DNA from: an uncultured virus (IMG/VR IMGVR_UViG_3300009703_000011)
Taxonomy: Duplodnaviria > Heunggongvirae > Uroviricota > Caudoviricetes
Strand: one strand, 5' to 3'
IMG/VR virus record: IMGVR_UViG_3300009703_000011
DNA: 20,000 nucleotides
Below, one piece after another: positions 137 through 19,292 of the stretch. The position numbers and the translations under genes are program-made. Every line of letters starts with the position of its first letter. The first letter of the stretch is position 1. Below the pieces are notes generated by a model. The model was given only the letters and a program-made list of their open reading frames with translations, made no database searches and was not told where the DNA came from.

Positions 137-466
137 ATGACTGAAGAATCCTTAATTTGTGAAGAAGAAGAGCAGGAGAATGCTAATCAAGCTCTCCAAG
201 AGTTACTGGATGTCCTGAGAAAAAGAAATCTACGAACACAAGATTTAGTAGTTGTCTATGGAAATTTAGGATATGCACTAGGAGCCTCAATTGAAGGAGT
301 TGACCAGAGTACTGGTGGTCCTTCAATGCAAGAGCTACAAGAACAGTATTACACAGAGCCAACCCTTGGAGTATCTCTTATGCTTCAAGGCTACTTAGTT
401 ACATCTTGGTATAGCCAAGTGAATGATATGATAGTTGATCTACCCAAGGAGAATAAAGATGACTAA
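137..466 (+). CDS. hypothetical protein, acidic
   Basis: 109-aa ORF overlapping the start of the next gene by 8 nt; no recognisable motif. Confidence 0.75.
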   Translation: MTEESLICEEEEQENANQALQELLDVLRKRNLRTQDLVVVYGNLGYALGASIEGVDQSTGGPSMQELQEQYYTEPTLGVSLMLQGYLVTSWYSQVNDMIVDLPKENKDD

Positions 467-989
467 ACGACCATTACAATACCCAATTTATAAAGGTGTC
501 AAAGGAAACTGGGGCGCACTTCAGTTTAACTTTCAAGCACCTCACTACTACAGAGACAGAGAGAAGGATTTTACAGGCAGGATAGCTCTGGATGCCTCTG
601 GAAAGATTGAAGATGGTTGGCGCCAGAGAGAAGGTGCTGTCTTTGTCGAAGCAGCTACTGCTACTGGACCTAATATTTATGATTGGGAAAACAAGATTAC
701 TTTTGCATGTTCAGTAACTGACATGGGTAAATTGATTCTTGGTCTTACCACTGGTGATAGTACAGACATCATGCATGACCCCGGAGCCAGAGGCCCAAAC
801 GAAGGGAAAGTTCGTAAGCACCTAAAGCTTTATTCTAGTAAGGGGATCACCAAGGGTGGTTGCATGATCACTGTTAGTCTTCAGGAAGGAGATAAGAACA
901 TGGAGCACAAGATTCCAATGAGTCCTGATGAATGCCTTGTCTTGAGACAACTCCTACTTACGGCTGTCTCTAAAGCTCTTGCATGGTGA
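459..989 (+). CDS. Whirly-family single-stranded DNA-binding protein
   Basis: Start moved to ATG 459 (SD AAGGAG 446-451). Motifs YPIYKG..GAL, REG, YDW..K..F..SVTDMG, HDP, EGKVRKHLK, IP...E..VL and a terminal W are colinear with plant WHY proteins as I recall them (YSIYKGKAAL, YDWSRKQVFSLSVTEIG, FHDP, EGRVRKVLK, LLGW). Confidence 0.85.
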   Translation: MTKRPLQYPIYKGVKGNWGALQFNFQAPHYYRDREKDFTGRIALDASGKIEDGWRQREGAVFVEAATATGPNIYDWENKITFACSVTDMGKLILGLTTGDSTDIMHDPGARGPNEGKVRKHLKLYSSKGITKGGCMITVSLQEGDKNMEHKIPMSPDECLVLRQLLLTAVSKALAW

Positions 990-992
990 TAC

Positions 993-1628
993 ATGACTGA
1001 TGAATATGAGTTAGATGAAAGACTTAGGCTCATCTATAACTTTGCATCTGATATCGTAGCCATAGAGAAGGATACCCTTTCAATAGGGATGAGAGACAAG
1101 CTGTCACTTCTTAAGGATATGGCAGATGTGGAACAGTTTACGCTGTCTGAGGTCCAAGATATATTTGAAACCAAAGAGGATGACTTATCTAAAAATAACA
1201 TAATAATTTCTTGTGATGCTTCCATAACAAAAAATCCAGGTGGCCAAGTTGCTGTTGGTTTTGTAATTAGATTTCCTAGTGAAGATAAGCTTCCTACTAT
1301 CAAGATGTCTAACTTTACAACCTCGAAGACTAATAACACAGGTGAATATGACGCTATCTATGAAGCGCTAGTCTTCTTGTTTAATCATCATAACAGACCC
1401 AAGCACGAGGTTGTTGTTTACAGTGACAGTAAGTTAGTTGTAGAACAACTGAAGGGTAACTGGGAAGTAAATGATAAGACCCTGAAAAGAAAATGTGAAT
1501 CAATTCATGAGCTAGTATCAGAAGGTCCCGTGCCCGTATCTATTCGTTGGGCACCAAGGAACTCAACACCAGACCTGGCAGAAGCCAACTTCCTAGCACA
1601 AGATAAGAATAAAGTCCCTAGACACTAG
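993..1628 (+). CDS. RNase HI-like protein with N-terminal extension
   Basis: CDAS..NPG, TNNTGEY, YSDSKLVVEQL.G.W.V and W.PR..N/S..A..LA motifs of the archaeal/actinobacterial-type RNase HI family; the fourth acidic residue appears as Asn (ANFLA). Confidence 0.85.
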   Translation: MTDEYELDERLRLIYNFASDIVAIEKDTLSIGMRDKLSLLKDMADVEQFTLSEVQDIFETKEDDLSKNNIIISCDASITKNPGGQVAVGFVIRFPSEDKLPTIKMSNFTTSKTNNTGEYDAIYEALVFLFNHHNRPKHEVVVYSDSKLVVEQLKGNWEVNDKTLKRKCESIHELVSEGPVPVSIRWAPRNSTPDLAEANFLAQDKNKVPRH

Positions 1629-1639
1629 AGGTAAATACA

Positions 1640-1981
1640 ATGTTCTCTATTACTGGAATGTTTGCCATTCCAAGAGATCCTCATGTTGAGGTCTCAGCAG
1701 TTAGTACTGGGTCCTATATTAACTTTAAAGCTGTCACTCAGGCAAAGAATAAGGGTGATAAGGCAGTCTGGCACCACTGGGATGTTGCCCTATGGGTTCC
1801 AGATGACAAAGTCGAATACTGGAAAGACCAACTTGTATCTGGGAATGTATTTATAGTTGAGCATGCAAGTGTTACAACCTATCCGGTTCAGGATGGTAAG
1901 TATCACAACACCAAGATCAGACTTGAACATAATAAAGTTAAAAGATTAACCACGCCCATGTGGGCAGAAAGCAAGGGATAG
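1640..1981 (+). CDS. divergent SSB-like OB-fold protein
   Basis: SD GAGGT. The pattern G....RDP, F..V......K..WH...V.LW, L..G..F.VE resembles bacterial SSB; no acidic C-terminal tail. Confidence 0.6.
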   Translation: MFSITGMFAIPRDPHVEVSAVSTGSYINFKAVTQAKNKGDKAVWHHWDVALWVPDDKVEYWKDQLVSGNVFIVEHASVTTYPVQDGKYHNTKIRLEHNKVKRLTTPMWAESKG

Positions 1982-3049: not shown

Positions 3050-3633
3050 AATTAATTCAAGCATTTGTATGGAAGGCTAGTGATTCAGATAAGGAACTGG
3101 TAACAAGGCTTATTAGGGCTGTCTATCCTGAGGATCCAGTACTGGTTACAGATGTATTGTTAGACAATAAAGGTGACAGCTTCACTGGTGATGTCCTGCT
3201 TGCCTTTGGTACAAGAGCATACAATATAGTATCTACCGTTGTCGAACAGAATGTCTATCAATTCACGACTCCAGCAAAGCTAAGGTCCTTACCTGAAAAT
3301 AAGATTGCAAGATCTCAGACATTTGAAAAGCTAAAGAAGCTGGCAGAAGAAAAAGTTCAAGTAGAAGATGTAACTCTTACAGATAAAGAATTAGAAAAGT
3401 TCTTATCTAAACAGTTGGTTACTCTACAAAAGTCTTTGAAAGCTAAGGAGACTAAGTACTGGAAAGCTACAACAGCAACTGGGAAGTCTATTGCTATAAC
3501 ACTTTTACCAAATACAAAAGTCCCCAACTGTGAAATCATATTAACCTTTGAAGAGCTGTTCGCTGCCAAATATGCAGTAGAAGCTCTAGGCGTCGACTCT
3601 CTAACCCTTACAGGAAAACAAGAAAATGAGTAA
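3046..3633 (+). CDS. hypothetical protein (weak UDG/HolD-like N-terminal half)
   Basis: 195-aa ORF coupled to neighbours on both sides. VLLAFGTRA and TP.KL...P..K..R...F..L loosely recall the UDG-like alpha/beta fold. Confidence 0.7.
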   Translation: MKLIQAFVWKASDSDKELVTRLIRAVYPEDPVLVTDVLLDNKGDSFTGDVLLAFGTRAYNIVSTVVEQNVYQFTTPAKLRSLPENKIARSQTFEKLKKLAEEKVQVEDVTLTDKELEKFLSKQLVTLQKSLKAKETKYWKATTATGKSIAITLLPNTKVPNCEIILTFEELFAAKYAVEALGVDSLTLTGKQENE

Positions 3634-5365
3634 AGTACTTTATGAAAACTCTATGGAAGAGATTGGTGTAGCAGTTAGGTCACTAGCTCCTTACGTCTGG
3701 GTTCGTACACACGAAGAATCACGTTTCATTGGTGATTTTAATCAGCTAATGACACGTGCCAAGCGTAAGGTTTATGTGTGGTCAATCTGTCAAGGCATTA
3801 CATCTCCCGAAATCTCACTCACTGGTGAGAAGAGCACTGGGATGTTTGCTGGAACAGAAAATCCACAAAAAGCTTTAGATCTCATCTCCACCATGCAGAA
3901 AGATGAAAAAACCTGTCCTAACGGTATCGTTATTGTCATGAGAGATCCCATGATGATACTTCAGGGTCCCATAATTAGGCAGTTTAGAGATTACTACAAT
4001 CACCTGTCGGGTGGTCAGATTACTGTCCTATTCCTATCTTCTGAGCTAGGACATGGACCTGGTGGTAAGAATGCTGGTCTCCCAGCCTCTATACAGAAAC
4101 AGGTTACTGTTATAGATTATGGCTTGCCACTTCTTGATGGTATCGGTGAAGAACTACGTGGTTTAATTAGAAGTGCATCAAGAAGGAATGCTCCAGATGC
4201 TAAGATGCCGAAAGAGCAGCAAGAAAAATACAGGGCACAGCTAGAGAAGTTTAAGTTTACCAAGGAACAGTATTTTGAATTCTCACGTGCTCTTCAAGGT
4301 TTAACTATCGAAGAGGTCAGAGTCGCAGCTTCTAGCTGTTTGCACCACCTTAAAACACTTGATACAGCCTTTCTTCTCAGGTCTAAGAAGCAGATTATTT
4401 CTAGGTCAGATATTCTAGAGTACCTAGATCACTCTGTGAACATGGAAGATGTCGGAGGGATGGATCTTGTTAAGGATTTCTTTGAAGACTATACTGACTG
4501 TCACTCAGAAGAAGCACAAGCTTTCGGTGCAGAACCACTCAAGGCAGTTCTTACTGTAGGTATTCCTGGCTGTGGTAAGAGTTTGACCTGTAAGGCTGTT
4601 GCTAATCAGTGGAAGCTACCTCTTATTCGTATGGATATGGGTAAAGTAATGGCTGGTATCGTGGGTGCTAGTGAATCACGAATGCGTCAAGCTATCGCAC
4701 AAGTAGAAGCAGTTTCTCCATGTGTATTGTGGCTAGATGAGATTGAGAAGAGCATGTCAGGAACCAAATCATCTAACTTCAGTGATGGTGGTACCATGGC
4801 TCGTGTCTTCGGCACTCTCCTCACTGCTATGGAAGAGGGTATGACTGGTGTTACTATTATGGCTACGGCCAATGACATTAGTGCTCTTCCACCTGAGCTG
4901 ATTCGTCGGTTTGATGAGGTATTCTTTATTGACCTTCCTGGACCAGATGAGAGAAAGGAAATCTTTGCTATTCAGTTAAGGATGAAAAACTTTCAAGACT
5001 CTGACATCGATCTTGATCAGGTAGTAGAAGCTTCTGAAAACTATACTGGACATGAGATTGAAAAAGCTGTAAAACGAGGCATTACAAAAGCATTTAGATC
5101 AGAAGAGAAAGTTCTTACAACAGATCTAGTGGTAGAGTCCCTGAGAGACACGAAGCCTCTCTATGATACAGCACATGAGAATCTCAGTAAGATGAGAGAG
5201 AAGGCTCAGAATCGTTACAGGTTTGCATCTTCATGGGCAAAGATTCAAGGAGAAAAGTTAAAAGCAAAACAGAAGACAATGGATGTAAACGACATTGATC
5301 TGCCAGATATGAAAACAGAAAAGAGTAAATCATCTGATTTAGATAGTAATTTACTATTAGATTAA
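3626..5365 (+). CDS. Ycf46-like AAA+ ATPase (SpoVK/Ycf46/Vps4 family)
   Basis: N-terminal WVRTHEE.R, then VGGMD.VK, Walker A GIPGCGKS, Walker B VLWLDEIEK, SRH TAND...LPPELIRRFDE.FF.DLP. Confidence 0.92.
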   Translation: MSKVLYENSMEEIGVAVRSLAPYVWVRTHEESRFIGDFNQLMTRAKRKVYVWSICQGITSPEISLTGEKSTGMFAGTENPQKALDLISTMQKDEKTCPNGIVIVMRDPMMILQGPIIRQFRDYYNHLSGGQITVLFLSSELGHGPGGKNAGLPASIQKQVTVIDYGLPLLDGIGEELRGLIRSASRRNAPDAKMPKEQQEKYRAQLEKFKFTKEQYFEFSRALQGLTIEEVRVAASSCLHHLKTLDTAFLLRSKKQIISRSDILEYLDHSVNMEDVGGMDLVKDFFEDYTDCHSEEAQAFGAEPLKAVLTVGIPGCGKSLTCKAVANQWKLPLIRMDMGKVMAGIVGASESRMRQAIAQVEAVSPCVLWLDEIEKSMSGTKSSNFSDGGTMARVFGTLLTAMEEGMTGVTIMATANDISALPPELIRRFDEVFFIDLPGPDERKEIFAIQLRMKNFQDSDIDLDQVVEASENYTGHEIEKAVKRGITKAFRSEEKVLTTDLVVESLRDTKPLYDTAHENLSKMREKAQNRYRFASSWAKIQGEKLKAKQKTMDVNDIDLPDMKTEKSKSSDLDSNLLLD

Positions 5366-5417: not shown

Positions 5418-6034
5418 ATGAGACTAGCCAAAAATACATCAAAACAATCTAATCATAACTTCTTTTCAACTTGGAATGAAAACTCAGCATACATGATGGG
5501 ACTCTTAGAAGCTGATGGCTGTATAGAAAATAATAAAAAAATAACATATTCAGCAGCGGAAAAAAAGATAAAGATCATGTATATAAAACACACCAATTAT
5601 TTAATTCAAACGTAAAAATTGGCGTGGCAACCTGGAAAGGATACAAGAAATATAGATATTCAATAACATCACCACAGATGGTTTCTGATCTAAAAGATGC
5701 AGGATTTCGTTCAGGGCAGCTTCCTTGTATTCCTGAAGGGTTAATGCACCACTGGTTAAGAGGCCTATTCGATGGTGATGGTAGTGTGTATATTGATAAA
5801 ACTAATAAAACTTATGTAAGTATAGTTTTTTCAACTAAAGAATTTGCTACTAGCGTTCTTGACTATATTGTTAGTCAAATTGGCTTTAGTTCAGGAATGA
5901 AAATTTATAAAAAAACAATGGCCGAGTGCTGGTATTTTAGAGTAGCAAAACAAAGTTTAGTAACAGCATTCGGTAATTTAATCTATGACAATTCAACAAT
6001 TAAACTGAATCGAAAATTTCACAAGTTTAACTAG
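5418..6034 (+). mobile_element. free-standing two-motif LAGLIDADG homing endonuclease gene split by a -1 frameshift (ORFs 5418-5615 and 5624-6034)
   Basis: Motif 1 AYMMGLLEADGC and motif 2 HWLRGLFDGDGS. A -1 shift at A_AAA_AAG (5561-5567) joins them into about 205 aa (..SAAEKKDKDHVYK..). More AT-rich than its flanks. Confidence 0.85.
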
Positions 6035-6050: not shown

Positions 6051-6458
6051 ATCAGTCATTGGACAAAAATCAAAATGAAGATCACCAAGGGTGATATTCT
6101 AGAGAAAGCCCTGAAAAGAATGGGTTGTGAATCAGTACAAACTGGTAGTAAGGACATTACACAGTATAATACTACAGAGAAAGCTGACATCTGGGTTGAC
6201 AAGGGTGTTGGCTTTAAACGAGAACAGGATGGTACGTTCTCTATGGTTGGTGATTTTTATCACTCTACCAGTCTGAATAGATACTATAATAATACAGAAA
6301 ACTTTGAGAAGGATCTAAATGCTGCTTATGGTATTGAAGATACACTCGCTCAAGTTTCTGCTCTGAATCTAGGCTTTGACCTAACGGGAAACCTACAGTT
6401 CGAAGAGGATGAAGAGGGTCTTATTCGGCTTGAGTTTCAAAGCTATCAGGAGATGTGA
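6051..6458 (+). CDS. DUF1257 / Ycf35-like protein
   Basis: The in-frame upstream extension SHWTKIKMKI matches the family's MSH(F/W)..IK start; also L..AL..MG and VGFKR..DG.F..VGD.Y. Located between the Ycf46-like AAA and DUF2997. Start is probably ATC 6051 (SD AGGAGG 6040-6045); the ORF track starts at 6075. Confidence 0.8.
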   Translation: MSHWTKIKMKITKGDILEKALKRMGCESVQTGSKDITQYNTTEKADIWVDKGVGFKREQDGTFSMVGDFYHSTSLNRYYNNTENFEKDLNAAYGIEDTLAQVSALNLGFDLTGNLQFEEDEEGLIRLEFQSYQEM

Positions 6459-6646
6459 TGATTAAACTACATGCAATTATTGATCCCAAAACAGGTAGGA
6501 TTGAATTTGAAGTGGAGGGCCTCGTTGGTGGTAAGTGTACTGACATTACCAAGGCCTTACAAGCTGCTCATGAAGTAGAGGATGAAAGGTATACAGAGGA
6601 ATACTTTGTAGCTAGCGAGAATCCAGCATACGTTGAAGATCTTTAA
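6458..6646 (+). CDS. DUF2997 family small protein
   Basis: I.P..G.I..EVEG..G..C...T..L.......T.EYF pattern; SD AGGAG 6448-6452; TGATG overlap with the DUF1257 stop. Confidence 0.8.
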   Translation: MIKLHAIIDPKTGRIEFEVEGLVGGKCTDITKALQAAHEVEDERYTEEYFVASENPAYVEDL

Positions 6647-7754: not shown

Positions 7755-8303
7755 ATGACAGAAACAACTGATACACAAAAACTTGCAAAACAAACAGTCG
7801 ACACTATGATTAGTGGCTTGCGAAAAGGTAAGGATATTCATGAGCAGTTTGCGAAAGCTGTCCAGGAGAGAATGATGATTCAGGGAAAGACTATGCCACA
7901 GTGGCGTAAGCATTTTTCTGTTAAGATCCCTGACAATCCTGACATCACAGCCTGTAAGGAGACCAGTATGAGACTGATGGAGTTGTTTCAGGAGGCTAGT
8001 TTCCTGAAGGCCATGGCAGATGCAGCTCACTCTCTACAAAAGAAGGGTTATGATACCCAGTATAGGGAGAAGTTTGAAGCAGCTGTCTCTGAGTATAAAA
8101 CTGAAGGTAAGAAGCTTCCGGCGAAGGATACACTTGAAACACTTGCGAAACTTGAGGTCGATGATATCGAATCAGGGTTAGCATATTCAGATCTGTCTGT
8201 ACGATTCTGGAAAGAGATTCTTGAGAATTTAAACTACTTGCGAAAAATAGTGGAAACGTCTACGATAAATAATTCAGTAGAAGCAAAGATGCTTGATAGA
8301 TAA
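7755..8303 (+). CDS. helical protein, possible UvsY-like recombination mediator
   Basis: C-terminal half (VDDIESGLAYSDLSVRFWKEILENL...VEAK) resembles the T4 UvsY C-terminus as recalled; recA lies nearby. The ORF is solid, the function tentative. Confidence 0.45.
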   Translation: MTETTDTQKLAKQTVDTMISGLRKGKDIHEQFAKAVQERMMIQGKTMPQWRKHFSVKIPDNPDITACKETSMRLMELFQEASFLKAMADAAHSLQKKGYDTQYREKFEAAVSEYKTEGKKLPAKDTLETLAKLEVDDIESGLAYSDLSVRFWKEILENLNYLRKIVETSTINNSVEAKMLDR

Positions 8304-8631: not shown

Positions 8632-8959
8632 GAGGATAACAGAAGTAGACATTTCAACTGTTGCTCCTGACTCACAAGAGTGTAAGATTATTATCTTGCA
8701 CGTTATACACCAGGCCATAAAAGACTATCAACACTTTAGGCACAAAATTAGACCGGAAGAAATAGAGGTGTACGAGAGTGCATCTAACTTCCTGTTTGAT
8801 GATGAGTATATGTTTGACTGGGGCACAGATGTTGTGAACCTTAGAATGCTATGTGAACATGTTCATATGGATATCGATTGGTTAAGAAATCAAGTAGTTA
8901 AAAAAATAGATTTAACATTCAATGACGACGGGACTATTGTTCCCGAAAGAAGATACTAA
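8624..8959 (+). CDS. hypothetical phage protein (I..QAIKDY...A..F...LC....D..WL pattern)
   Basis: Start ATG 8624 overlapping the previous stop; TAATG overlap with the next gene. Confidence 0.7.
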   Translation: MGKRITEVDISTVAPDSQECKIIILHVIHQAIKDYQHFRHKIRPEEIEVYESASNFLFDDEYMFDWGTDVVNLRMLCEHVHMDIDWLRNQVVKKIDLTFNDDGTIVPERRY

Positions 8960-9549
8960 TGAGATTTTTAATTGATGTTGATGGGGTCGTAGCGGATCTT
9001 ATAACAACGATGATTGATGATATTAATCAAGCACATCGTAAGTATAAAACGAGATTAAACCCTGAACACATAACTGATTTCTACTTTATGAATCCAGATC
9101 TAGGAATACTTTCCCCAGGAGAGTGTAAGTTTGCTATTAGAAACTTCGCTCGTCCTGGGCTTGCCTATGAGCTTCAACCTATTCCAAGTGCAGTCGAAGG
9201 TGTTCAGAAGCTGGAGAATGCAGGCCACGAAGTGGTGTTTGTTACTAGTGACTGGCAAGAATCTAGAACCTGGGTTAATGATAGGCGAGCCTGGATCTCT
9301 GAGCATTTTGGTGATCAAGAGGTTATATTCTGTCACAAGAAACATTATGTTATTGGTGATGTATTAATTGATGACAGAGCTAAGACATGTGAAACCTTTG
9401 CAACTGCACACCCAGAAGCACTTGTTCTTATGTATGATCAACCATGGAACAGAGATCATCTAATCCAGGCTGGAAATATACAACAGTTTAACTGGGGAGT
9501 CCTTGACTACATGCTTGAACATAATCTTTTCCCACACAGGAAAAAATAG
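8959..9549 (+). CDS. 5'(3')-deoxyribonucleotidase (HAD, NT5C family)
   Basis: HAD motif I DVDGVVAD, FVT, K...GDVLIDD, QPWN. Confidence 0.9.
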   Translation: MRFLIDVDGVVADLITTMIDDINQAHRKYKTRLNPEHITDFYFMNPDLGILSPGECKFAIRNFARPGLAYELQPIPSAVEGVQKLENAGHEVVFVTSDWQESRTWVNDRRAWISEHFGDQEVIFCHKKHYVIGDVLIDDRAKTCETFATAHPEALVLMYDQPWNRDHLIQAGNIQQFNWGVLDYMLEHNLFPHRKK

Positions 9550-10146
9550 ATGGGAATATTAATAGGTATCGGCCACAAGAAGCGCCGAGGAAAGGATGCA
9601 TCAGCTAATAGACTCGTAGATAAGCATGGCTTCGTTCGTGTCTCCTGGGCTGACAGTTTGAAAACAGCATGCAGGAATATATTCTTCTTTTCAGAAGAAC
9701 AACTGTATGGAAACAAGAAAGAAGTAGTAGACCCACGATGGGGGCGTACTCCACGCTGGATACTTCAGCAGTTTGGCACTGAGGCCTGCAGAGATAATAT
9801 AGATAAGGATATCTGGGTGAAATCTGCTTGGCTTAGAGTTCAAGAAATCTGGAAGGATGATCCAACAAGAGGAATCGTTATTCCAGATGTAAGATTTCCA
9901 AATGAAGCAGACTTCGTTAAAGAGAAAGGTGGTTTCCTTTGGAGAGTAGACAGGGATATTCCTGATGATGAAAACTCAGATCATCCCAGTGAAACAAGCC
10001 TGGACACTTATGAAAGATGGGATCAGATATTGAATAATAATAATGACTTAACGCATCTGTATGGAATAGTAGATGCGGCCTTAGCAGATAGCAAGGCACC
10101 TAAGCGCAGGAGGGGTGAACGTGGAGTTTACAAAGGAACAGTCTGA
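9550..10146 (+). CDS. deoxynucleoside monophosphate kinase (T4 gp1-like)
   Basis: [12 protein letters not shown]-loop variant, [29 protein letters not shown]. Confidence 0.9.
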
Positions 10147-11122
10147 TAATTTAGAGCTAATGCTAGCTGGGGTTAATAAGAAGTACGGAAAGAATACGCT
10201 AAGAACCCTTGGTGGAGATGAAGTTGTTGATATACCCAGACTTACTACAGGAGTCGCCTCTCTTGATGAGGGAAGCGGTGGAGGCTGGCCATGGGGTCGT
10301 ATTATAGAGATATATGGACCAGAAAGCTCAGGAAAGACTACTCTCACTCTGGAAGCTATTGCACAAGCCCAGAAACAGGGAAAGGTTTGTGCCTTTGTTG
10401 ACGTAGAACATGCTCTTGATGTAGTCTATGCTCAAAATCTTGGTGTTAACGTAGAAACACTTCTCATCTGTCAACCTGATACGGCAGAGGAGGCTCTTGA
10501 TATAGTAGAGATCATGTCCAACTCTGGAACCGTTGATCTTATTGTAGTTGACTCTGTTGCAGCACTCGTTCCAAAGAAAGAATTAGAAGGTGAGATGGGC
10601 GATCATGTTGTTGGCCTTCAGTCTAGGTTAATGTCTCAGGCCATGAGAAAACTAACTGGTGCTGTTTACAGAAACAATGTTCTTCTATTTTTTATCAATC
10701 AAATCAGACACAAAATAGGTGTTATGTTTGGTTCACCTGAGACTACTAGCGGAGGTAACGCTCTTAAGTTTTATGCGTCTATAAGGTGTGATATTCGTAG
10801 GCTTAAACAGGTTAAGGATGGAGACACATCGGTAGCGAATGAAACAAGGGTTAAGTTCGTTAAAAATAAGGTGGCGCCACCCTATGCTACTTCAGAATTT
10901 GTTATCAGATTTGGCACTGGCATAGATAAGATGACTGACCTCTTGCGAATTGCTGTTAAGCATAAGCATATTAAAAAGTCAGGCTCCTGGTTCTCCTACA
11001 AGGATGAGAACATTGGACAAGGCGAACCTAACGCTTCAAAGTTTCTAGAAGAAAATGAAGAAATTACAAATGAAATCAGAGAGTTGCTCAAGCCAAAAGT
11101 TATTGCAGAGGATGACTTCTGA
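10121..11122 (+). CDS. recA: recombinase RecA
   Basis: [73 protein letters not shown] 10121 fits SD GGAGG 10109-10113 better than GTG 10115. Confidence 0.97.
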
Positions 11123-11481: not shown

Positions 11482-12419
11482 TAGTTTAAGTACACAGTAT
11501 GTATTCTATTCTAGATGGAGAGAATAGGATAGAAGCTCTCGTTAAGAAGGTTAAAGAATTAGGCATGAAACATTGCGCCCTTACAGATCATGGTACAATG
11601 ATGGGCATACTTGAGTTTTATAAAACTTGTAAGAAGTATGACATTAAACCTATCATGGGTGTAGAGGCATATATAACTGATGATGAAGATGGGATTCCGA
11701 AAGAGGAGAGAACAAGAGATAACAACCACCTTGTCATGGTGGCAGAAACTAATGAAGGTCTTAAGAACCTTTTTTGGCTTACCTCTAAGGCGCAGACCGA
11801 GAACTTCTATTTCAAACCAAGAATATCAAAAAAGAATCTTACACCTGAGAGAACCAAAGGAATAATTGTTTCCTCTGCTTGTCTTGGTGGACAAATTAAT
11901 AGGTGTGGTGGTTACAATCCTGAAACCAATATCTATGAAGGTCAAGATGAGATGGAGCGGTTGGCGAAGTGGTATTCTAAAACCTTCAATGGAAACTACT
12001 ACCTAGAGATTCAAGATAATGATGATGCACAACAGATTGCATATAACTCAGTCTTAAAAACAATCTCAGAGAAGAATAATATTCCCCTTGTTATTACATC
12101 GGATGCTCACTATACAGAACTTGAGAGTAGTGAGACTCATTCCTTTTTAATGGCAATGCAGTTTAAGAAAACATTACAGCAGTATGAAGAAGATGGAATC
12201 ATGAAGTATGGACCATGGTTCTATGTTCGGAGTCCAGATCAGATGTTAGAAGCTGCTAAGAAATATCAAAGTGAATCAGCATTTTGGAATACATGTGACA
12301 TAGCAAAAAGATGCAATGTTGACATTGAAATTGGTGTCTATAAAAACCCAGAGTTTGATATTAAAACTCAACCAGACTATGAAGACTTTAAAAGGTCTCA
12401 AGGAGAAGATGATGTCTGA
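11452..12419 (+). CDS. dnaE: DNA polymerase III alpha subunit, stand-alone PHP domain (5' segment interrupted by an 8-nt insert at 11482-11489)
   Basis: MQVTDFCHLH* (11452-11484) is followed in another frame by VHSMYSILDG (from 11490), TDHG, GVEAY, NNHL, SACLGG, YLEIQ, TSDAHY. The main ORF in the track is 11499-12419. Confidence 0.9.
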
Positions 12420-12681
12420 ATTATCAGATCGAATTCCAGTACTTCAAGAACAAGTTGTTGTTATTGTTGAGGCTGTACAGAAACAAAAAGAAGAAAAGAA
12501 GACAATGGCAAAGTCTTATAATGAAACAATCAAAGCTCTTGAAGCTGAACGTGATACCCTACTCCTTGAGCTTAACGCTACTAAGGATCAGGTTAAACAA
12601 GAAGCCTTGGTAGAGAAGGCTGATGATATCATCAAGGCTAATGCATCACCAGGTGGTGAAACTCACGAATTAATCCTCTAG
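12412..12681 (+). CDS. small coiled-coil hypothetical protein between dnaE fragments
   Basis: SD AGGAG 12401-12405, ATG 12412, overlapping the PHP stop; E/K-rich heptad character. Confidence 0.7.
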   Translation: MSELSDRIPVLQEQVVVIVEAVQKQKEEKKTMAKSYNETIKALEAERDTLLLELNATKDQVKQEALVEKADDIIKANASPGGETHELIL

Positions 12682-12690
12682 GGGGTAACT

Positions 12691-13059
12691 GTGGCAAAAA
12701 GAACAAGGCGGAAGAAGGGACCTGACGGTAATTTATATACAAAAGAACAGTGGAATAAAAAGTGTGGACCTGGAAGTGCTTCGAGTAATAGTTCAACAAT
12801 AGATATTAAAACGCAAGAACAGGTACAGAGAAATACCAATAAGAAACCTGTCATAGAGGAGAAAGCTAGTAAAACTGAGAAGAATAACGCACCAACACTT
12901 ATAGTTAGTTACGTATCTTCTAATGGAAACAGAATTACTAAATCTTTTCAATGTGCTTGTATCCAAATGAACGAAGACAAAACTACAGAGATGATGCTAT
13001 CAGGTCCAAAAACTAAGCTCCACTTATCTGTGGAGGCTGATGTTATAGAGGTACTCTAA
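12691..13059 (+). CDS. basic hypothetical protein between dnaE fragments
   Basis: GTG start after GGGGGT; 122 aa; its stop abuts the dnaE core ATG. Confidence 0.7.
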   Translation: MAKRTRRKKGPDGNLYTKEQWNKKCGPGSASSNSSTIDIKTQEQVQRNTNKKPVIEEKASKTEKNNAPTLIVSYVSSNGNRITKSFQCACIQMNEDKTTEMMLSGPKTKLHLSVEADVIEVL

Positions 13060-15825
13060 ATGAGTGAGCTGGATGACTACTATGTTTACAAGACAGAAAG
13101 GGGTCTTGCAGATCGTATCTCTAAACTCGCCTATGAAGTAGACGAGAAGGCTTACAAGGAGAGATTGGAATATGAAAACAAGATCATCATACAGATGGGT
13201 TACCCCGGCTACTTCCTCGTTGTACAGGACTTCATCAACTGGGCTAAGTCACAAGGTATCCTCGTTGGGCCTGGACGGGGGTCTGGTGCTGGTGCTCTGG
13301 CTTGCTTTGCCACAGGTATTACTAACGTTGACCCTATTCCCTTTGGGCTCATTTTTGAACGGTTTCTTAATCCTGCTCGGGTTTCAATGCCTGATCTTGA
13401 CATTGATTTCCCGAAAGGGCGACGTGAAGAAGTCATTCAGTATGTGAGAGATAAGTATGGAGCAGACAAGGTTGCACAGATAGGAACCTTTGGAACTCTA
13501 AAAGCTAAGGCATCGATCAAGGCTGCTTGCAGAACTCTTGGACTTCCTATACCCATGGGTGAAGAGCTAACGAAAATGTGGCCGAAGCCAGAACATGGTA
13601 AGGAGGTTAGCTTTCAGAATGCTCTAACTACTGTGCCAGATCTTAATCGTACCTACCGCTCCGCAGGGGAGAGGGGTGAGATTTTAAGATGGGCAGAGAA
13701 GATCGAGAACAGGATTTCATCTTTTGGAATCCATGCTAGTGGTGTTGTTATAGCCAATGAACCACTGCACGAAACAGTTCCCCTGGCTCTTGGTAAGAGA
13801 GGGGAGATTGTAACCCAGTGGGACATGAACAGAGTTGAAGACGTTGGTCTTATCAAGTTTGACTTTCTTGGTTTGAAGAACTTAGATGTAGTTCAGTTAG
13901 CTGTAGATCTAATCAAGAAACAAAAGAAGATTGAAATTGATATAGAGAATATACCTCTAGATGATGAGAAGGTTTATTCTAATCTACGTAAGGGAGATAA
14001 CATTGGCGTCTTCCAGCTGGAGTCTTCTAGTGGTATGAAGGATCTGTTAGTTAAGATCAAACCATCATGCCTAGAAGATCTTACAGCACTTGTAGCAATC
14101 TATAGACCTGGACCACTTGGTTCAGATAAGCTTGAAGATTATTTAAGCTGGAGAGCTGGAACTTCAGAACCAGTTTATTACCACCCAGACTTAGAGCCTA
14201 TCCTGAAGTCAACTGGTGGGTGGATTATATATCAAGAACAAGTACTTAGAATAGCAAGAGACTTGGCAGGTTATGATCTTGCCCAGGCTGATCTTCTTCG
14301 TCGAGCTGTTGGTAAGAAGAAGGCTAGTGAGATGCTTAAGCATAGAGCTGGGTTCCTGAAGGGAATAAAAGCTAATGGTTATACAGAAAACCTAGGTATA
14401 ACTCTTTGGAATGCCATAGAGATTTTTAGTTCATATGGGTTCAACAAAACAGTTGACAAGGATACCTTAGTTGCTACCGTAAATGGAGACAAGAGAATAG
14501 AGGACTGCTCAGAGCTAGATACTGTTTTCACAGTTGCCAACTCTGGAGAGATTGTTCAGTCGCAAGTTGTTGCACTTCACGATCATGGAAACGTACCTCT
14601 TTGGGAGGTAGAGTTTGATGATGGAAGTATCGAAAGATGTACTCTTGACCACAAGTGGCTTACAATATTTGGACAGCAACCACTTTGGAGAATCCTCCAA
14701 GAAGATATCCAGACCTTCGGGAACAATTCCCAAGAGTCAGGCAACAAGTTTGCCGAGGTCGGGAAAAAGGTCTATCCGAGTCAGGACAACACACTGTGGA
14801 ATAACAAAAACACAAACAATCAAAGCTTTGAGGGACCATCAAAGGCAGTGCCTGGAATGTCAAAGGCTAAGGAAGTTGATTCGTCAAAAGACGAGGGCCA
14901 AGTCAAACAGGTCTTCCCATATGAGAAAGATAGCATCCGAAACAGCAAAGAAAACCTCAGCAAGACCAGAGATACAATTACAAAGAGCGAAGGTTCTAAA
15001 GAAGTGGAGAGATTCACACCCAGAACAGTTCGCTTTGATAAAAGAAAAAGCACACTCATCTCCAAAGCTCTCCAAGATGGAGATTTGGTTACAACCTATT
15101 CTCCAGAAGCTGGGGTTTGTTCGCTCAGTCCAACTGAGGTGTGGTATAGAAAGGAAGCAAGTAGATTTCGTAAATCACTCAATGCAAACAGCAATAGAAG
15201 TGGATGGACCTTGGCATTTTCTACCGGTGAATGGAGAAGAGAACCTAAAGAAAGTTCAAGACCGGGATCGAATGTTAGAACAAGAGATTATTCATCGAAA
15301 CTGGAGGCTGATTCGTCTTTCAATGGAGAACTTTCACTCCTCTGGGAGACTTACAAAAATAAGCTTGGAACACCTTTTCAGTTTAATAGAAAGCAAACAA
15401 TATCCTCCAATCTTACTGGTAGGAAAGTTATACGAATCAGTTATAAAGGAATCTGCCAAGGTTATGATCTTGAAGTAGATCATCCAGCACATAACTTCTT
15501 GCTTAGCTCTGGTCTTTGCTGCTCTAATAGCCATGCCGTTGCCTATGCTACAATCTCTTACTGGTGTGCCTATCTTAAAACGTACCATCCTGTTGAATTC
15601 ATGACTGCTGCTCTTACAATGGATAGTGGGAACATGGATCAGATGATTATCTATTTACAAGAGTGTAAGAGGATTGGTATCCAGGTTCTCCCTCCTGATA
15701 TTAATGAGTCTGATTTGAATTTTACTCCAGTTGCCAACACTGTTAGGTTTGGCTTCACTGCGATAAAGAACTTGCGTGAAGGACCAGGTAATCACATAAT
15801 TGAGAAACGAAATGAAGAAATTTAA
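13060..15825 (+). CDS. dnaE: DNA polymerase III alpha subunit catalytic core, intein-containing
   Basis: GPGRGSGAG, FERFLNP.R.SMPDLDIDF, GIHASGV, KFDFLGL, GVFQLES, YRPGP, IYQEQ, AD.LRRA.GKK; YGFNK/SHA.AY is rejoined after intein removal. Confidence 0.95.
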   Translation: MSELDDYYVYKTERGLADRISKLAYEVDEKAYKERLEYENKIIIQMGYPGYFLVVQDFINWAKSQGILVGPGRGSGAGALACFATGITNVDPIPFGLIFERFLNPARVSMPDLDIDFPKGRREEVIQYVRDKYGADKVAQIGTFGTLKAKASIKAACRTLGLPIPMGEELTKMWPKPEHGKEVSFQNALTTVPDLNRTYRSAGERGEILRWAEKIENRISSFGIHASGVVIANEPLHETVPLALGKRGEIVTQWDMNRVEDVGLIKFDFLGLKNLDVVQLAVDLIKKQKKIEIDIENIPLDDEKVYSNLRKGDNIGVFQLESSSGMKDLLVKIKPSCLEDLTALVAIYRPGPLGSDKLEDYLSWRAGTSEPVYYHPDLEPILKSTGGWIIYQEQVLRIARDLAGYDLAQADLLRRAVGKKKASEMLKHRAGFLKGIKANGYTENLGITLWNAIEIFSSYGFNKTVDKDTLVATVNGDKRIEDCSELDTVFTVANSGEIVQSQVVALHDHGNVPLWEVEFDDGSIERCTLDHKWLTIFGQQPLWRILQEDIQTFGNNSQESGNKFAEVGKKVYPSQDNTLWNNKNTNNQSFEGPSKAVPGMSKAKEVDSSKDEGQVKQVFPYEKDSIRNSKENLSKTRDTITKSEGSKEVERFTPRTVRFDKRKSTLISKALQDGDLVTTYSPEAGVCSLSPTEVWYRKEASRFRKSLNANSNRSGWTLAFSTGEWRREPKESSRPGSNVRTRDYSSKLEADSSFNGELSLLWETYKNKLGTPFQFNRKQTISSNLTGRKVIRISYKGICQGYDLEVDHPAHNFLLSSGLCCSNSHAVAYATISYWCAYLKTYHPVEFMTAALTMDSGNMDQMIIYLQECKRIGIQVLPPDINESDLNFTPVANTVRFGFTAIKNLREGPGNHIIEKRNEEI
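14449..15528 (+). mobile_element. intein (360 aa) in DnaE at YGFNK|SH
   Basis: Removing residues 464-823 restores YGFNKSHAVAY. Block A-like TVDKDTLV, block B CTLDHKW, block F GYDLEV..HNF, block G SGLCCSN|S. Confidence 0.9.
14618..15478 (+). CDS. DUF559/Vsr-like (EDxHD-type) endonuclease nested in the +1 frame inside the intein
   Basis: SKME..L...L..LGF, VDF......AIEVDG.WH, DRDR......NW.LIRL; N-terminal HCG...H...C..C; SD GGGAGGT 14603-14609, 8 nt before ATG 14618. Confidence 0.85.
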   Translation: MMEVSKDVLLTTSGLQYLDSNHFGESSKKISRPSGTIPKSQATSLPRSGKRSIRVRTTHCGITKTQTIKALRDHQRQCLECQRLRKLIRQKTRAKSNRSSHMRKIASETAKKTSARPEIQLQRAKVLKKWRDSHPEQFALIKEKAHSSPKLSKMEIWLQPILQKLGFVRSVQLRCGIERKQVDFVNHSMQTAIEVDGPWHFLPVNGEENLKKVQDRDRMLEQEIIHRNWRLIRLSMENFHSSGRLTKISLEHLFSLIESKQYPPILLVGKLYESVIKESAKVMILK

Positions 15826-16783
15826 GGACTTCTTTGATTTTTGTAAAAGAGTTGACACTGGGCTTATAAATAAGAAGAAGCTCGAATCCCTAATCTTATC
15901 AGGTGCTTTTGATTTTACACAGCAGACCAGAAGCACTCTGCTTCAGGCGCTAGAAGATGTTCTCGTTTTTAAATCAGAACGAAAGAAGTATGAAAAGAAA
16001 CTTGAGACCTTTCATAAAAAGACTGAGGCTTATCTAGAAAGACTTGAGGCTATAGAGAGGGACGAGAAGGGTGCTAATGGAAACAAGCTAAGACCTTTCA
16101 AGAAACCAGAAGAGCCTCTTGCTCCAGGTCAACCATCTTATGCACATGAAGAGGAGATGTCTCAGCAGCTCCTTCTGCAGAAAGAGAGAGAACTTACAGG
16201 GTTCTTTATTTCGGGTCATCCTCTTGACGGGTTTGGCTCTAGGATAAAGACTACTATAAGATCTTTAAGAGTTAATAAACCTGAGCAAATTGATTTTGTA
16301 TGTATAATTTCAGATACTACAATCAAAGAATCAAAGAAGAAACAAAGATATGCCTTTATCAGGTTTGAAGATTTAACTGGAACCATAGAAGGTGTAATCT
16401 GGCCATGGTTATATAAGAAGAACAAACATAATATTCTACCCAACATACCAGTCAGGGTTGCTGCGAAGGTTACTTATACTGAAGCAGAACCAGATGAAGA
16501 CTCTGTAGAGGATGAAGTAATTCCATATTTGGATATCAAACACATAGAACTATTGGAGAAGCCTGCACAGGAGAGTATGAATATTAGGATGGATGTTCCA
16601 CTAACAATGAAAAACATTTCTTCTGTAAAGAAAATTCTTGAAAAGAATGCTGGCCAATCAGGTGTTGCGTCTGTTAGGTTTTCATCTAACTCAGGCAGTA
16701 CGCTTGGTGTACCCAAGGTTTATGGGATTAATAAAAATGGAAGAACAATTAGAACAGAAGTCCTCAGAGTTACAAAACAGTGA
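15812..16783 (+). CDS. dnaE: DNA polymerase III alpha subunit C-terminal part (HhH + OB fold)
   Basis: FKDFFDFCKRV, NKKKLESLI.SGAFD, KERELTGFFISGHPL, AFIRFEDLTG.IE..IWP. It is in the +1 frame relative to the core; ATG 15812 (or TTG 15800). Confidence 0.9.
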   Translation: MKKFKDFFDFCKRVDTGLINKKKLESLILSGAFDFTQQTRSTLLQALEDVLVFKSERKKYEKKLETFHKKTEAYLERLEAIERDEKGANGNKLRPFKKPEEPLAPGQPSYAHEEEMSQQLLLQKERELTGFFISGHPLDGFGSRIKTTIRSLRVNKPEQIDFVCIISDTTIKESKKKQRYAFIRFEDLTGTIEGVIWPWLYKKNKHNILPNIPVRVAAKVTYTEAEPDEDSVEDEVIPYLDIKHIELLEKPAQESMNIRMDVPLTMKNISSVKKILEKNAGQSGVASVRFSSNSGSTLGVPKVYGINKNGRTIRTEVLRVTKQ

Positions 16784-16940
16784 GGTAGAAAACCCTAGTT
16801 ATATTGGTCTACTAGGGGGGCTAACATTAATAACCCTACCATTGATAGGGATTGCTGCTATTATAGGCCTAGTTAAGACTATTGAGTTTTTAGATGAATC
16901 AGATGAAGACTCAAATCAAGATGAGGTTGATAATATATGA
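16737..16940 (+). CDS. small membrane protein
   Basis: Probable ATG 16737; one hydrophobic stretch (IGLLGGLTLITLPLIGIAAIIGLV) and an acidic tail; ATGA overlap with the next gene. Confidence 0.55.
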   Translation: MEEQLEQKSSELQNSEVENPSYIGLLGGLTLITLPLIGIAAIIGLVKTIEFLDESDEDSNQDEVDNI

Positions 16941-18373
16941 AGTGGACAAATGAAGAACTGGATCTTTTATCTAAATATCGTTCAGATATAAAACCAATAA
17001 GAGTCTATGAAGGCTACGTCTCAGAGTTTGGAGCAATTCGTTCCTACGATTCTGTACAGAAGAAGTTTAGAACTCTACGAGAGGATCTGGAACCAACTGA
17101 ACCTGAACTCCATGATGAGGATGATGAACAAGAAGATCAAACACCCTATGTCTTTGAGAAGTATAAGTATATCAAGGAAGCTGATGAGTATTGGATCCCA
17201 ACGAAGAGGGGGTTCTTACAAATTAGTGGTTCAAGAATCAGACAGCTAGTTAGCGACTACTCGAACTTTGGCGCAAAGAAAACCAGGAATGTAGTAGCTC
17301 GTGAGTTTGGCTGGGCTAGAGATGCCGTAATCGATGTCCTAAAGGTTCTTGGAAAGACACATGATTCTGCACCCTTTACAGATGAAGTATTACTAGAGGA
17401 GCCAGTTGAAGAACTAGTAGCTTCTTTGGTAAGAAAGAAAGAAGGTCGTGTAATTGCTAAGGCTGAAAGGTTAGAGCAGGTAGCTCTTGAGAAGAATGCG
17501 CTCAAGTGGCAAGAAATTGAACGAACAATCAAGAACGTGTTCGCCGATAAAGATTATCAATCACTATCAAAACAACCGGTTCTTAAGTTGAAGAAACCAG
17601 AGGTAGATTTTGATTTAGTTCTGTATCACACAGATGCACACGTAGGAAAATTAGCTCATGGCTGGAACTATGATGAGACTCGTAGGATCATTCTAGAAAC
17701 TGCAGAACGTGCACTTGCACATGCAACTGCCTATGGACAACCGAATCGTATCATTACTGGAATCGGTGGTGACTGGGCTAACATTGATACACCAGGACAC
17801 ACAACGACTAGGGGAACCCCACAGAATAGTAGCGCTGAGTGGTATGACATATTAGATGGTGCTAACCAGATCACTCTAGACCTCCTTAGATTACTGAGAC
17901 AGGCAGCTCCAGTTGCAGCCTATACAGTTCCAGGTAACCATGATCGTATGTGGAGCATGTTAGCAGGTTCCTGGTTGAACAGACTGTTTGAAGAAGATGA
18001 CCGTGTCGAAGTACATACTCATCAACATCGTCATTATATTGAATCAGGTAAGAATTTAATTATGCTTACACATGGTGATGGATGCAAACCACGAGAGTAC
18101 CCATCTATAATGGCTGCTGAATCTGCAGAGATATGGGGAAGAACTAAACATAGATATGTATATCATGGTCATCTACATCATGAAGTAGTGAGAGAGAGTC
18201 GTGGAGTAATTGTTACACAGATGCCCAGTATTACACCCGATGACAACTGGCATTTACATAGTGGTTATGTGGGAAACCGAAGAGCACTTACGGCACATGT
18301 ACATAATTATGAAGCAGGGCGTGTAGCTCAATTCAATATAGCAGTTAGCGATGATGGTGAAATACTAGGCTAA
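16937..18373 (+). CDS. calcineurin-like metallophosphoesterase with N-terminal Myb/HTH-like region
   Basis: D.H.G (TDAHVG), GGD, PGNHD, THGD, GHLHH; N-terminus KWT.EE..LL...RS..SV..K. Confidence 0.85.
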   Translation: MKWTNEELDLLSKYRSDIKPIRVYEGYVSEFGAIRSYDSVQKKFRTLREDLEPTEPELHDEDDEQEDQTPYVFEKYKYIKEADEYWIPTKRGFLQISGSRIRQLVSDYSNFGAKKTRNVVAREFGWARDAVIDVLKVLGKTHDSAPFTDEVLLEEPVEELVASLVRKKEGRVIAKAERLEQVALEKNALKWQEIERTIKNVFADKDYQSLSKQPVLKLKKPEVDFDLVLYHTDAHVGKLAHGWNYDETRRIILETAERALAHATAYGQPNRIITGIGGDWANIDTPGHTTTRGTPQNSSAEWYDILDGANQITLDLLRLLRQAAPVAAYTVPGNHDRMWSMLAGSWLNRLFEEDDRVEVHTHQHRHYIESGKNLIMLTHGDGCKPREYPSIMAAESAEIWGRTKHRYVYHGHLHHEVVRESRGVIVTQMPSITPDDNWHLHSGYVGNRRALTAHVHNYEAGRVAQFNIAVSDDGEILG

Positions 18374-18389
18374 CCATAGGAAGAAATCT

Positions 18390-19292
18390 GTGAGTAAAGA
18401 TTACCCAGAAGAGAGAGTACTAGATCATGGTTTTGTTAGACTTGTTGACAGTATGGGGGACGATGGGCGCGTGGTTGACGCTGCGCGTGTATCTTATAAA
18501 AAGGGAACTAAGAAAGTTTCAACCGATAGAGGTTTAATTCGATACCTCTTGAGGAAACTTCATACAACTCCCTTCGAGAAAGTCAGGTTTGAATTTCATG
18601 TAAAACTTCCAGTGTTTGTTGCTAGGCAATATATGAGACACAGGATGGGCACCTTCAATGAAGTCTCTGCAAGATACTCAGAGATGCCCGACGAGTTTTA
18701 TATACCTAACCCACTAAGAAAACAATCAAAGAATAACAAACAAGGATCATCCTCTCTTTCTGTAGATAAGATACTCGTTACCTCAGAATTTTCTGATGGT
18801 CATCTAGACTCTGAAATAAATCCTCAAGAATTTCTAATGGATTACTTTGACGATTCCTATGCTGTATATCAGCAGCTACTGGAATCTCATACAGCTCGCG
18901 AGTTAGCTCGTGGAGTCTTACCAGTAAATATCTATACAGAGTTCTACTGGACTGTTGATCTTTGGAACCTTATGCATTTTCTTAGATTAAGATTAGACTC
19001 TCATGCTCAGTATGAAATAAGAGTATATGCAGAAGCTATATATAAACTAATAAAAGAACACTGTGATTTAAATATGTCACTAGAAGCTTTCCAGGATTAT
19101 ATCCTAGACAAGCCCAATCTTACGAAATATGAAGTAGGCATTCTTGTAGACTTAGTTAAAAAGTTAAGGGCAACCTCTCTCATAGGAGCAGATATTACAG
19201 AGATAATATCTGAACAGCTAGATTTGAATAAAGAAATGAGTGATAGAGAAAAGAAAGAGAGTAGTCTTCTATATTTATTAAAAGATGACTAA
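18390..19292 (+). CDS. thyX: FAD-dependent thymidylate synthase
   Basis: AARVSY, HTTPFE, P.FVARQ..RHR...NE.SARY, RELAR.VLP, LR....AQ.EIR. Confidence 0.96.
   Translation: MSKDYPEERVLDHGFVRLVDSMGDDGRVVDAARVSYKKGTKKVSTDRGLIRYLLRKLHTTPFEKVRFEFHVKLPVFVARQYMRHRMGTFNEVSARYSEMPDEFYIPNPLRKQSKNNKQGSSSLSVDKILVTSEFSDGHLDSEINPQEFLMDYFDDSYAVYQQLLESHTARELARGVLPVNIYTEFYWTVDLWNLMHFLRLRLDSHAQYEIRVYAEAIYKLIKEHCDLNMSLEAFQDYILDKPNLTKYEVGILVDLVKKLRATSLIGADITEIISEQLDLNKEMSDREKKESSLLYLLKDD

Follow-up and report, generated by a model that had tools for sequence, protein, structure and literature searches.

A Whirly-family gene in the replication region of a large uncultured phage

The gene at positions 459..989 (+ strand) of a 20,000-nucleotide stretch of uncultured viral DNA, here called the window, is a real Whirly-family gene in a phage, and its product is a true member of the family. 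The protein belongs to the family both by sequence and by fold, its genomic context is that of a phage, and it co-occurs with RecA, DnaE and a fixed upstream gene. We propose, with a probability of roughly 0.6, that it works as a tetramer which binds ssDNA and aids the phage in RecA-driven recombination and replication, beside an OB-fold SSB-like protein. Plant papers as recent as October 2026 still term Whirly plant-specific or plant-unique, and one paper traces the origin of the family back to the Chloroplastida ancestor (PMC11135702). Folds of the Whirly/PUR-like type are, according to reviews, present in all domains of life. A literature search with poor coverage of subscription journals returned no publication on sequence-level Whirly (PF08536) proteins in phages.

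The genes called in the window are all located on the + strand and are tightly packed. The features referred to below are as follows:

137..466, + strand: small conserved ORF of 109 aa with an acidic N-terminus, directly upstream of the Whirly gene
446..451, + strand: Shine-Dalgarno-like AAGGAG, read from the sequence, with a 7-nt spacer to the ATG at 459
459..989, + strand: Whirly-family gene, 176 aa plus stop, single open frame, pI 8.9
993..1628, + strand: RNase H-like protein (Pfam RVT_3 1.8e-8, RNase_H 2.8e-7; phrog_531 4.5e-13)
1640..1981, + strand: short predicted SSB-type OB-fold protein of 113 aa, without an acidic C-terminal tail, two genes past the Whirly gene
3626..5365, + strand: AAA+ ATPase, a conserved gene that serves as anchor of the module (Pfam AAA 1.3e-27; phrog_8638 4.2e-115)
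5418-6034, + strand: LAGLIDADG endonuclease in two pieces, ORFs of 65 and 136 aa on successive parts of phrog_4645
6455-6646, + strand: DUF2997 protein (Pfam/PHROGs)
7755..8303, + strand: conserved ORF that travels with the module (blastp matches in loci L001-L008, L011-L013 and L015-L019)
8959-9549, + strand: NT5C nucleotidase (Pfam/PHROGs)
9550-10146, + strand: dNMP kinase (Pfam/PHROGs)
10115..11122, + strand: RecA (Pfam RecA 5.3e-115)
11499..16783, + strand: DnaE in three pieces (PHP 11499-12419; core 13060-15825; C-terminal part 15800-16783, in another frame)
16937..18373, + strand: DNA repair exonuclease, a calcineurin-like phosphoesterase (phrog_704 1.3e-48; Metallophos_2 5.7e-6)
18390-19292, + strand: ThyX (Pfam/PHROGs)

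All of the strings quoted for the Whirly gene in a preliminary description of this DNA (YPIYKGVKGNWGAL, REGAVFV, YDWENKITFACSVTDMG, MHDPG, EGKVRKHLK and KIPMSPDECLVLRQLLLTAVSKALAW) were present in the translation of 459-989. An automatic ORF listing gave a TTG at 435 as an alternative start. The ATG at 459 reads as the better start, because AAGGAG lies 7 nt upstream of it and the homologues begin at the same point. This ATG overlaps the stop of ORF 137-466 by 8 nt, an arrangement that suggests coupled translation of the two genes. Comparison with four homologues gave 0.21-0.35 non-synonymous differences per site versus saturated synonymous differences of 0.67-0.89; the gene is under purifying selection. 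The pI of the product equals the median of its 91 close homologues (8.9), and the plant domains range from 9.1 to 9.8. The protein begins 7 residues ahead of the first strand, with no N-terminal targeting extension, and it lacks a C-terminal tail past the final LxW.

The product scored 72.3 bits against the Pfam Whirly profile PF08536 (E = 4.6e-20), with residues 56-164 covering positions 28-135 of the 136-position profile. The curated cut-off is 23 bits; the match greatly exceeds what chance would give, and the Whirly assignment of the preliminary description is thus borne out by the profile. A phmmer search of PDB sequences returned only plant Whirlies below E = 1e-8. StWhy1 was best (1l3a, 9.7e-12), followed by StWhy2 (3n1h, 4.7e-11) and by AtWHY2, AtWHY3 and AtWHY1 (2.5e-10 to 1e-8); the remaining hits were at E = 0.1 or worse. 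The plant Whirly entries in the PDB were 1l3a, 3n1h, 4koo, 4kop and 4koq. PHROGs held no family for the window protein. The AlphaFold2 model, built from a 126-row alignment, had a mean pLDDT of 97.6 and a pTM of 0.90, and contained the elements of the Whirly fold: two beta-sheet repeats, each with a helix after it, and a long C-terminal helix. Plant Whirly entries ranked first when this predicted model was compared by Foldseek (E 6e-13 to 6e-11, TM 0.70-0.84), and PUR-alpha and MRP1/2 ranked far lower (TM 0.36-0.59). Collinearity, as had been claimed, extended from the first strand through to the final residue. The protein had also been said to resemble plant Whirlies closely; membership in their family stands, but the closeness was overstated, as identity is 25-33% and a long tree branch lies between.

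Conservation across the 126 phage-side and plant-side rows was concentrated at a limited set of positions. H106 was invariant, and Y11, K12, G19, A20, G59, Y74, D75, W76, K79, D107, K120, E158 and W176 were kept in at least 90% of the rows; in the C-terminal helix, E158, L165, A169 and W176 were conserved. The KGKAAL motif of higher-plant Whirlies is not intact in the window protein, in which Y11-K-G-V-K-G-N-W-G-A-L21 stands against plant YKGK-AAL with four residues inserted. In the MAFFT alignment YKG and GAL line up with the plants, and no Lys lies opposite the second Lys of the plant motif. At least 90% of the close relatives have K as residue 17, and the window protein has N17 and K15. The second Lys (K67 of StWhy2) is needed for 24-mers and for cooperative binding (PMC3245945). 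In a plant review (PMC9070903), algal and liverwort Whirly-like proteins are likewise said to be without KGKAAL; the motif is therefore taken here to characterise higher-plant Whirlies rather than the whole family. A further feature of the window protein is an insert of ~20 residues after the second strand. By a simple pattern search, a CxxC...C(x0-4)C arrangement was found in this insert in 3/91 close homologues (P0083, P0084 and P0086) and in 15/148 cluster representatives (e.g. P0114 and P0164), and the window protein has no such cysteines. The pattern may form a zinc-binding knuckle in some of the phage-side Whirlies.

A word-indexed protein search with the window protein returned 91 proteins at E <=0.001 among 195 candidates. 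These close homologues were 149-198 aa long and 41-71% identical to the window protein; all were pre-annotated as PF08536, and all were metagenomic, on contigs of at most 205 kb. An exhaustive search of cluster representatives (50% identity clusters) gave 377 at E <=0.001, 113 of them at 1e-10 or better, and the best 150 of the 377 were taken forward. In IMG/VR, 18 loci were obtained on contigs of up to 198 kb, nine from the close clade and nine from a second clade that was reached with an 11-row alignment. The Whirly ORFs of second-clade loci L011-L015 and L017, and that of L009, passed PF08536 with 36.7-55.8 bits. The region 5294-7375 of L009 holds a different and smaller phage module, with a short and distant PF08536 protein of 143 aa. 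This protein is flanked by a PD-(D/E)XK nuclease on one side and a DUF7831 protein on the other, and DnaD-like and DnaB-like genes come next; a position beside such genes is the usual place of a recombination ssDNA binder.

The setting of the window gene is a large uncultured phage, from a clade of phages of 150-200 kb. The gene's own contig is 150,365 bp, and one related record (G007) is 197,730 bp long with direct terminal repeats and 100% CheckV completeness. The window itself shows replication genes only, and its assignment to the tailed phages comes through its relatives. Terminase_6N matched each of the two records with a completeness of 90% or more, in one case above the cut-off, and Terminase_6C was found in 0/5 related records. 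Genes near Whirly in the related loci include RIIA, a ClpP-type or prohead protease, an endolysin PHROG, RtcB, RNR and HNH. GenBank phages gave no match to the Whirly protein by tblastn or to the whole window by megablast. The window has no close relative among cultured phages, where the best matches had 29-30% identity for the AAA+ ATPase and 34-47% for DnaE, and they were scattered over phages of Mycobacterium, Rhodococcus, Streptomyces and Pseudomonas; because of this scatter over several host genera, no host can be named. The DNA was found in two DNA sequencing runs labelled subsurface metagenome, from two studies, and no RNA run was listed; one of the two studies may be where the window came from.

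A plant or algal contaminant was considered as the source of the gene and rejected, given the gene-dense phage block, the bacterial-type ribosome-binding site, the absent transit peptide and the synteny in 17 viral loci. The sole hit in GTDB was on a contig of a 'Pacearchaeota' MAG, and this contig is the same as that of IMG/VR locus L003. Whirly was present in 1/201 genomes of that MAG's DPANN phylum and in 0/14 control genomes. We therefore read the apparent archaeal Whirly as a viral contig that was mis-binned.

The neighbours of the Whirly gene form a phage replication and recombination block, as Pfam, PHROGs and the related loci confirmed, in agreement with the replication-module context proposed previously. 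The RNase H, RecA and DnaE named as neighbours in that proposal were all found. The claimed 'SSB' corresponds to ORF 1640-1981, which had no Pfam match even at E 1 and has an SSB-type OB fold in the predicted model. In the Atlas this ORF fell with SSB clusters by features (0.93) and by the Atlas model (TM 0.74). Its AF2 model reached pLDDT 84 from only 7 sequences, and the top Foldseek matches in the PDB were bacterial, mitochondrial and apicoplast SSBs (E ~1e-4, TM ~0.6), with further matches to trypanosome editosome OB proteins and PriB, all SSB-type OB folds. On these models, ORF 1640-1981 is taken to be an SSB-type OB-fold protein.

The AAA+ ATPase is present in L001-L008, and the ORF at 7755-8303 had no family match at E <=0.001 in Pfam or PHROGs. 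The LAGLIDADG-type homing endonuclease at 5418-6034 is free-standing and missing from the related loci, and is probably a decayed or frame-shifted copy. Within DnaE, the Pfam domains PHP, DNA_pol3_alpha, finger and HHH_6 were matched, with HHH_6 split over 13060-15825 and 15800-16783. Two small unknown ORFs lie between the PHP piece and the core, the core and C-terminal ORFs overlap by 26 nt in different frames, and core residues ~441-872 are without a Pfam match. A frameshift, a genuine split of the gene or an error in the assembly could explain the fragmentation. In related loci L003, L004, L006, L007 and L008, an RT-like 'polymerase' (phrog_2825) recurs 4-6 kb upstream of Whirly, and in L003, L004 and L006 an HNH endonuclease lies within ~1.3 kb of it; the phrog_2825 gene may belong to a group II intron or to a retroelement. 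Scans of the window with Rfam and for tRNAs returned nothing, and a promoter and terminator scan found sites that were fewer or no more than in shuffles.

A constant neighbour of Whirly was ORF 137-466. Its homologues lie directly upstream of Whirly in 17/17 full-length IMG/VR loci (L001-L008 and L011-L019), which represent ~14 different phages, as L015/L016 and L017-L019 have identical ORF maps. Blastp identified these homologues in L001-L008, L013 and L015-L019, and an HMM built from 12 upstream ORFs added L011, L012 and L014 (E 1.9e-21 to 1.8e-13). The pairing persists where the Whirlies are only ~29-36% identical to that of the window, and was not seen in L009. ORF 137-466 itself had no Pfam or PHROG match and the Atlas was uninformative. 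It is a candidate partner of Whirly, or no more than a gene conserved next to it. Both RecA and DnaE were present in 5/5 further Whirly-bearing viral records of the second clade, and RecA was also found in L001, L015 and L016. This co-occurrence may reflect only the common descent of one phage clade. In G006 and G010, the records of L011 and L012, RecA lies in open frames of 690-709 aa, and the match is split into positions 1-198 and 194-262, separated by ~1 kb, an intein-sized distance.

By analogy, we infer that the window protein would form a tetramer, bind ssDNA and stimulate RecA. A role in viral DNA metabolism appears most likely from homology, the basic pI and the context, and to that extent the earlier suggestion of a viral ssDNA-binding protein is upheld at the level of inference. 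In the proposed mechanism, the protein would assemble through its C-terminal helix, whose conserved residues lend the tetramer indirect support, into a homotetramer (whirligig) and would bind ssDNA on a basic beta-sheet face with little sequence preference, as in plant Whirlies. Its place would be the DNA metabolism of the phage itself, where it could shield resected or lagging-strand ssDNA and aid RecA loading and strand exchange in recombination-dependent replication and repair. It would do so alongside the separate OB-fold SSB-like protein and would not replace it. According to a 2026 preprint, strand exchange by AtRecA1 is enhanced by plant Whirlies, and strand exchange by AtRecA2 and AtRecA3 requires Whirlies jointly with OSB proteins. 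Taken with the RecA, exonuclease and separate OB-fold protein encoded by the phage, these plant results favour an accessory role over that of main SSB. Against the proposed role stand the interrupted KGKAAL motif, the missing aligned counterpart of StWhy2 K67, N17 in place of the K of close relatives, the RNA preference known among Whirly-fold proteins and the RNase H in the adjacent gene.

An alternative is that Whirly serves as the main replicative SSB of the phage at the fork, in place of a gp32-type or SSB-type protein. The Whirly gene is kept universally in the clade, and Pfam SSB (PF00436) was absent from 7/9 distinct related records, including the complete G007, and reached only 15.8 bits, under the cut-off, in G006 (91% complete). 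However, 7/9 of the records searched are fragments, 28-85% complete, and G008 (151 kb) has a canonical SSB (E = 1.5e-37), the one clear match, as well as Whirly. The window's own SSB-type OB-fold gene was missed by Pfam, and the Pfam-negative relatives may have one too; these absences therefore do not show that Whirly replaces SSB. Given an SSB-type OB-fold gene two genes away, Whirly would be an extra ssDNA binder and not the sole one, and we regard a main-SSB role as unlikely. It is similarly doubtful that the protein is mainly an RNA binder, acting either with the adjacent RNase H on primers and RNA:DNA hybrids or on phage mRNAs in the manner of ChmC. RNase H is the next gene after Whirly in the window, and the order is kept in 4/8 close loci (L001, L002, L004 and L005). 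RNA can be preferred by proteins of the Whirly fold, as in ChmC and MRP1/2, with plant WHY1 on RNA as a further case. ChmC and MRP1/2, both of the Whirly fold, bind RNA, and ChmC prefers ssRNA, with a Kd of 58 nM versus 184 nM for ssDNA (PMC11077065).

A host-directed function is the least probable of the alternatives considered, and we give it little credence. The protein could be a sequence-preferring transcription factor, a nucleoid compactor, or a ssDNA/RNA decoy against host defence. PBF-2 p24 was reportedly first described as a sequence-preferring transcription factor. A review describes plant Whirlies as transcription factors and nucleoid-compacting proteins (PMC9070903), and an early-gene-like position among small unknown ORFs is possible. 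The gene nevertheless lies inside the replication and recombination block, on one strand and tightly packed, the product has no DNA-sequence-reading domain besides the Whirly fold, and no PADLOC-type context was noticed. The role as a RecA helper remains our preferred reading of the gene.

The window protein was compared with several known systems. The plant and green-algal organellar Whirlies (StWhy1, which is PBF-2 p24, StWhy2 and AtWHY1/2/3; PF08536) are of the same family. Unlike them, the window protein is phage-encoded, lies across a branch with 100/100 support from all eukaryotic rows, lacks both a transit peptide and a C-terminal tail past the domain, and carries the 4-residue insert in KGKAAL and the ~20-residue insert after the second strand. 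ChmC of the Chimalliviridae jumbo phages (PhiPA3 gp61, PhiKZ gp67) is likewise a phage protein with a Whirly-type fold. According to its description, ChmC is a homotetramer by SEC-MALS, binds single-stranded nucleic acid, and was recognised by fold only, with no reported sequence similarity to known proteins (PMC11077065). It is set apart by its preference for RNA, its disordered tail and its action at the phage nucleus (PMC11077065); the window protein, in contrast, belongs to PF08536 at the sequence level, and its phage encodes RecA and DnaE. Trypanosome MRP1/MRP2 and PUR-alpha, which have Whirly-like/PC4-like folds, are 6-9% identical to the window protein with no sequence match. MRP1/MRP2 and PUR-alpha are RNA matchmakers or repeat proteins. 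T4 gp32/UvsY/UvsX and bacterial SSB/RecO/R/RecA are analogous to the proposed role, in that an ssDNA binder works with a recombinase in recombination-dependent replication, but the folds of T4 gp32/UvsY/UvsX and of bacterial SSB/RecO/R are unrelated to Whirly and the window phage has RecA, not UvsX.

Whirly-like proteins have also been listed in phage databases. The best BFVD fold match to the window protein was A0A6J5NR37 (E 1.4e-10, 29% identity), a shorter member of the same family (141 aa) that UniProt names 'Whirly transcription factor [uncultured Caudovirales phage]'. Two JGI homologues are likewise labelled 'Whirly transcription factor'; these labels, like that of A0A6J5NR37, are automatic only. 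The second-best BFVD match was A0A172Q074, an uncharacterised protein of 121 aa from the cultured Acinetobacter jumbo phage vB_AbaM_ME3 (E 3.7e-6, TM 0.79 by target, 24% identity). This protein may offer a culturable handle on a Whirly-like protein.

Phylogenetic analysis placed the window protein outside the eukaryotic Whirlies. The eukaryotic rows that carry names are Nothoceros, Psilotum, Sphagnum, Ostreobium, Tetraselmis, Partenskyella and Chlorochromonas, by source labels. Partenskyella is a chlorarachniophyte with a green plastid, and Chlorochromonas is a chrysophyte. Five more rows without names group with the eukaryotes and have N-terminal extensions, and were counted as eukaryotic on these grounds alone. 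In a quick tree with all 126 rows, 12 eukaryote-side rows separated from 114 others with an SH-aLRT of 99. A careful tree of 58 rows was built from 46/114 of the others, hand-picked for clades, and 12 eukaryote-side rows, with Partenskyella added and one near-identical Sphagnum dropped. It gave the same 12 versus 46 split with 100/100 support, and the branch between the two groups measured 0.83 + 0.33 changes per site. Deep on the phage/metagenomic side, P0002, P0012 and P0028 form a group with the window protein, which did not fall in the plant organellar Whirly clade, either by grouping with eukaryotes or by a targeting extension. The preliminary description had foreseen that the protein might nest far from plants, among ordinary bacterial Whirly-like proteins; far from plants it is, on a side whose rows are phage or metagenomic and may include bacterial ones.

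The trees were made without an outgroup and midpoint-rooted on the long branch, from a sample biased towards relatives of the query. Since there is no outgroup, they show that the two groups are distinct but give no age order or direction of transfer. The phage origin of plant Whirly raised in the preliminary description is, on these sequences, neither supported nor refuted. P0138 and P0164, the first branches on the phage side under midpoint rooting, had no match in single-protein IMG/VR scans, and P0138 had no relatives in the word-indexed search. P0211, on the eukaryotic side, carries the label of a chrysophyte, Chlorochromonas danica, which does not belong to the green lineage; the label hints at a eukaryotic range wider than Chloroplastida, or it reflects contamination. 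Phage-type proteins have been captured for organelles before, as with the phage-type RNA polymerase, Twinkle and the organellar DNA polymerases. Tentatively, a phage pool, or a phage and bacterial pool, might be Whirly's older home, where it was already accompanied by RecA and the ORF 137-466 partner, and from which one copy would have passed into the organelles of the ancestor of green algae and plants. We consider this scenario possible, and less probable than the RecA-helper role.

With at least 377 clusters (50% identity) matching the window protein, large phages hold a broad, deep-branching set of Whirlies, and the family is wider than thought. The phage Whirlies contradict the 'plant-specific' label, and the question of origin gains concrete sequences to root. 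For the uncultured clade of 150-200 kb phages, the protein would add a putative second class of ssDNA-binding protein to the replication toolkit. Together with RecA, the OB-fold SSB-like protein and the small candidate partner, Whirly makes up a small viral system for testing Whirly in recombination. If the older-home scenario is true, the RecA-helper activity of plant Whirlies would be ancestral, and the phages would provide a minimal system in which to dissect that activity.
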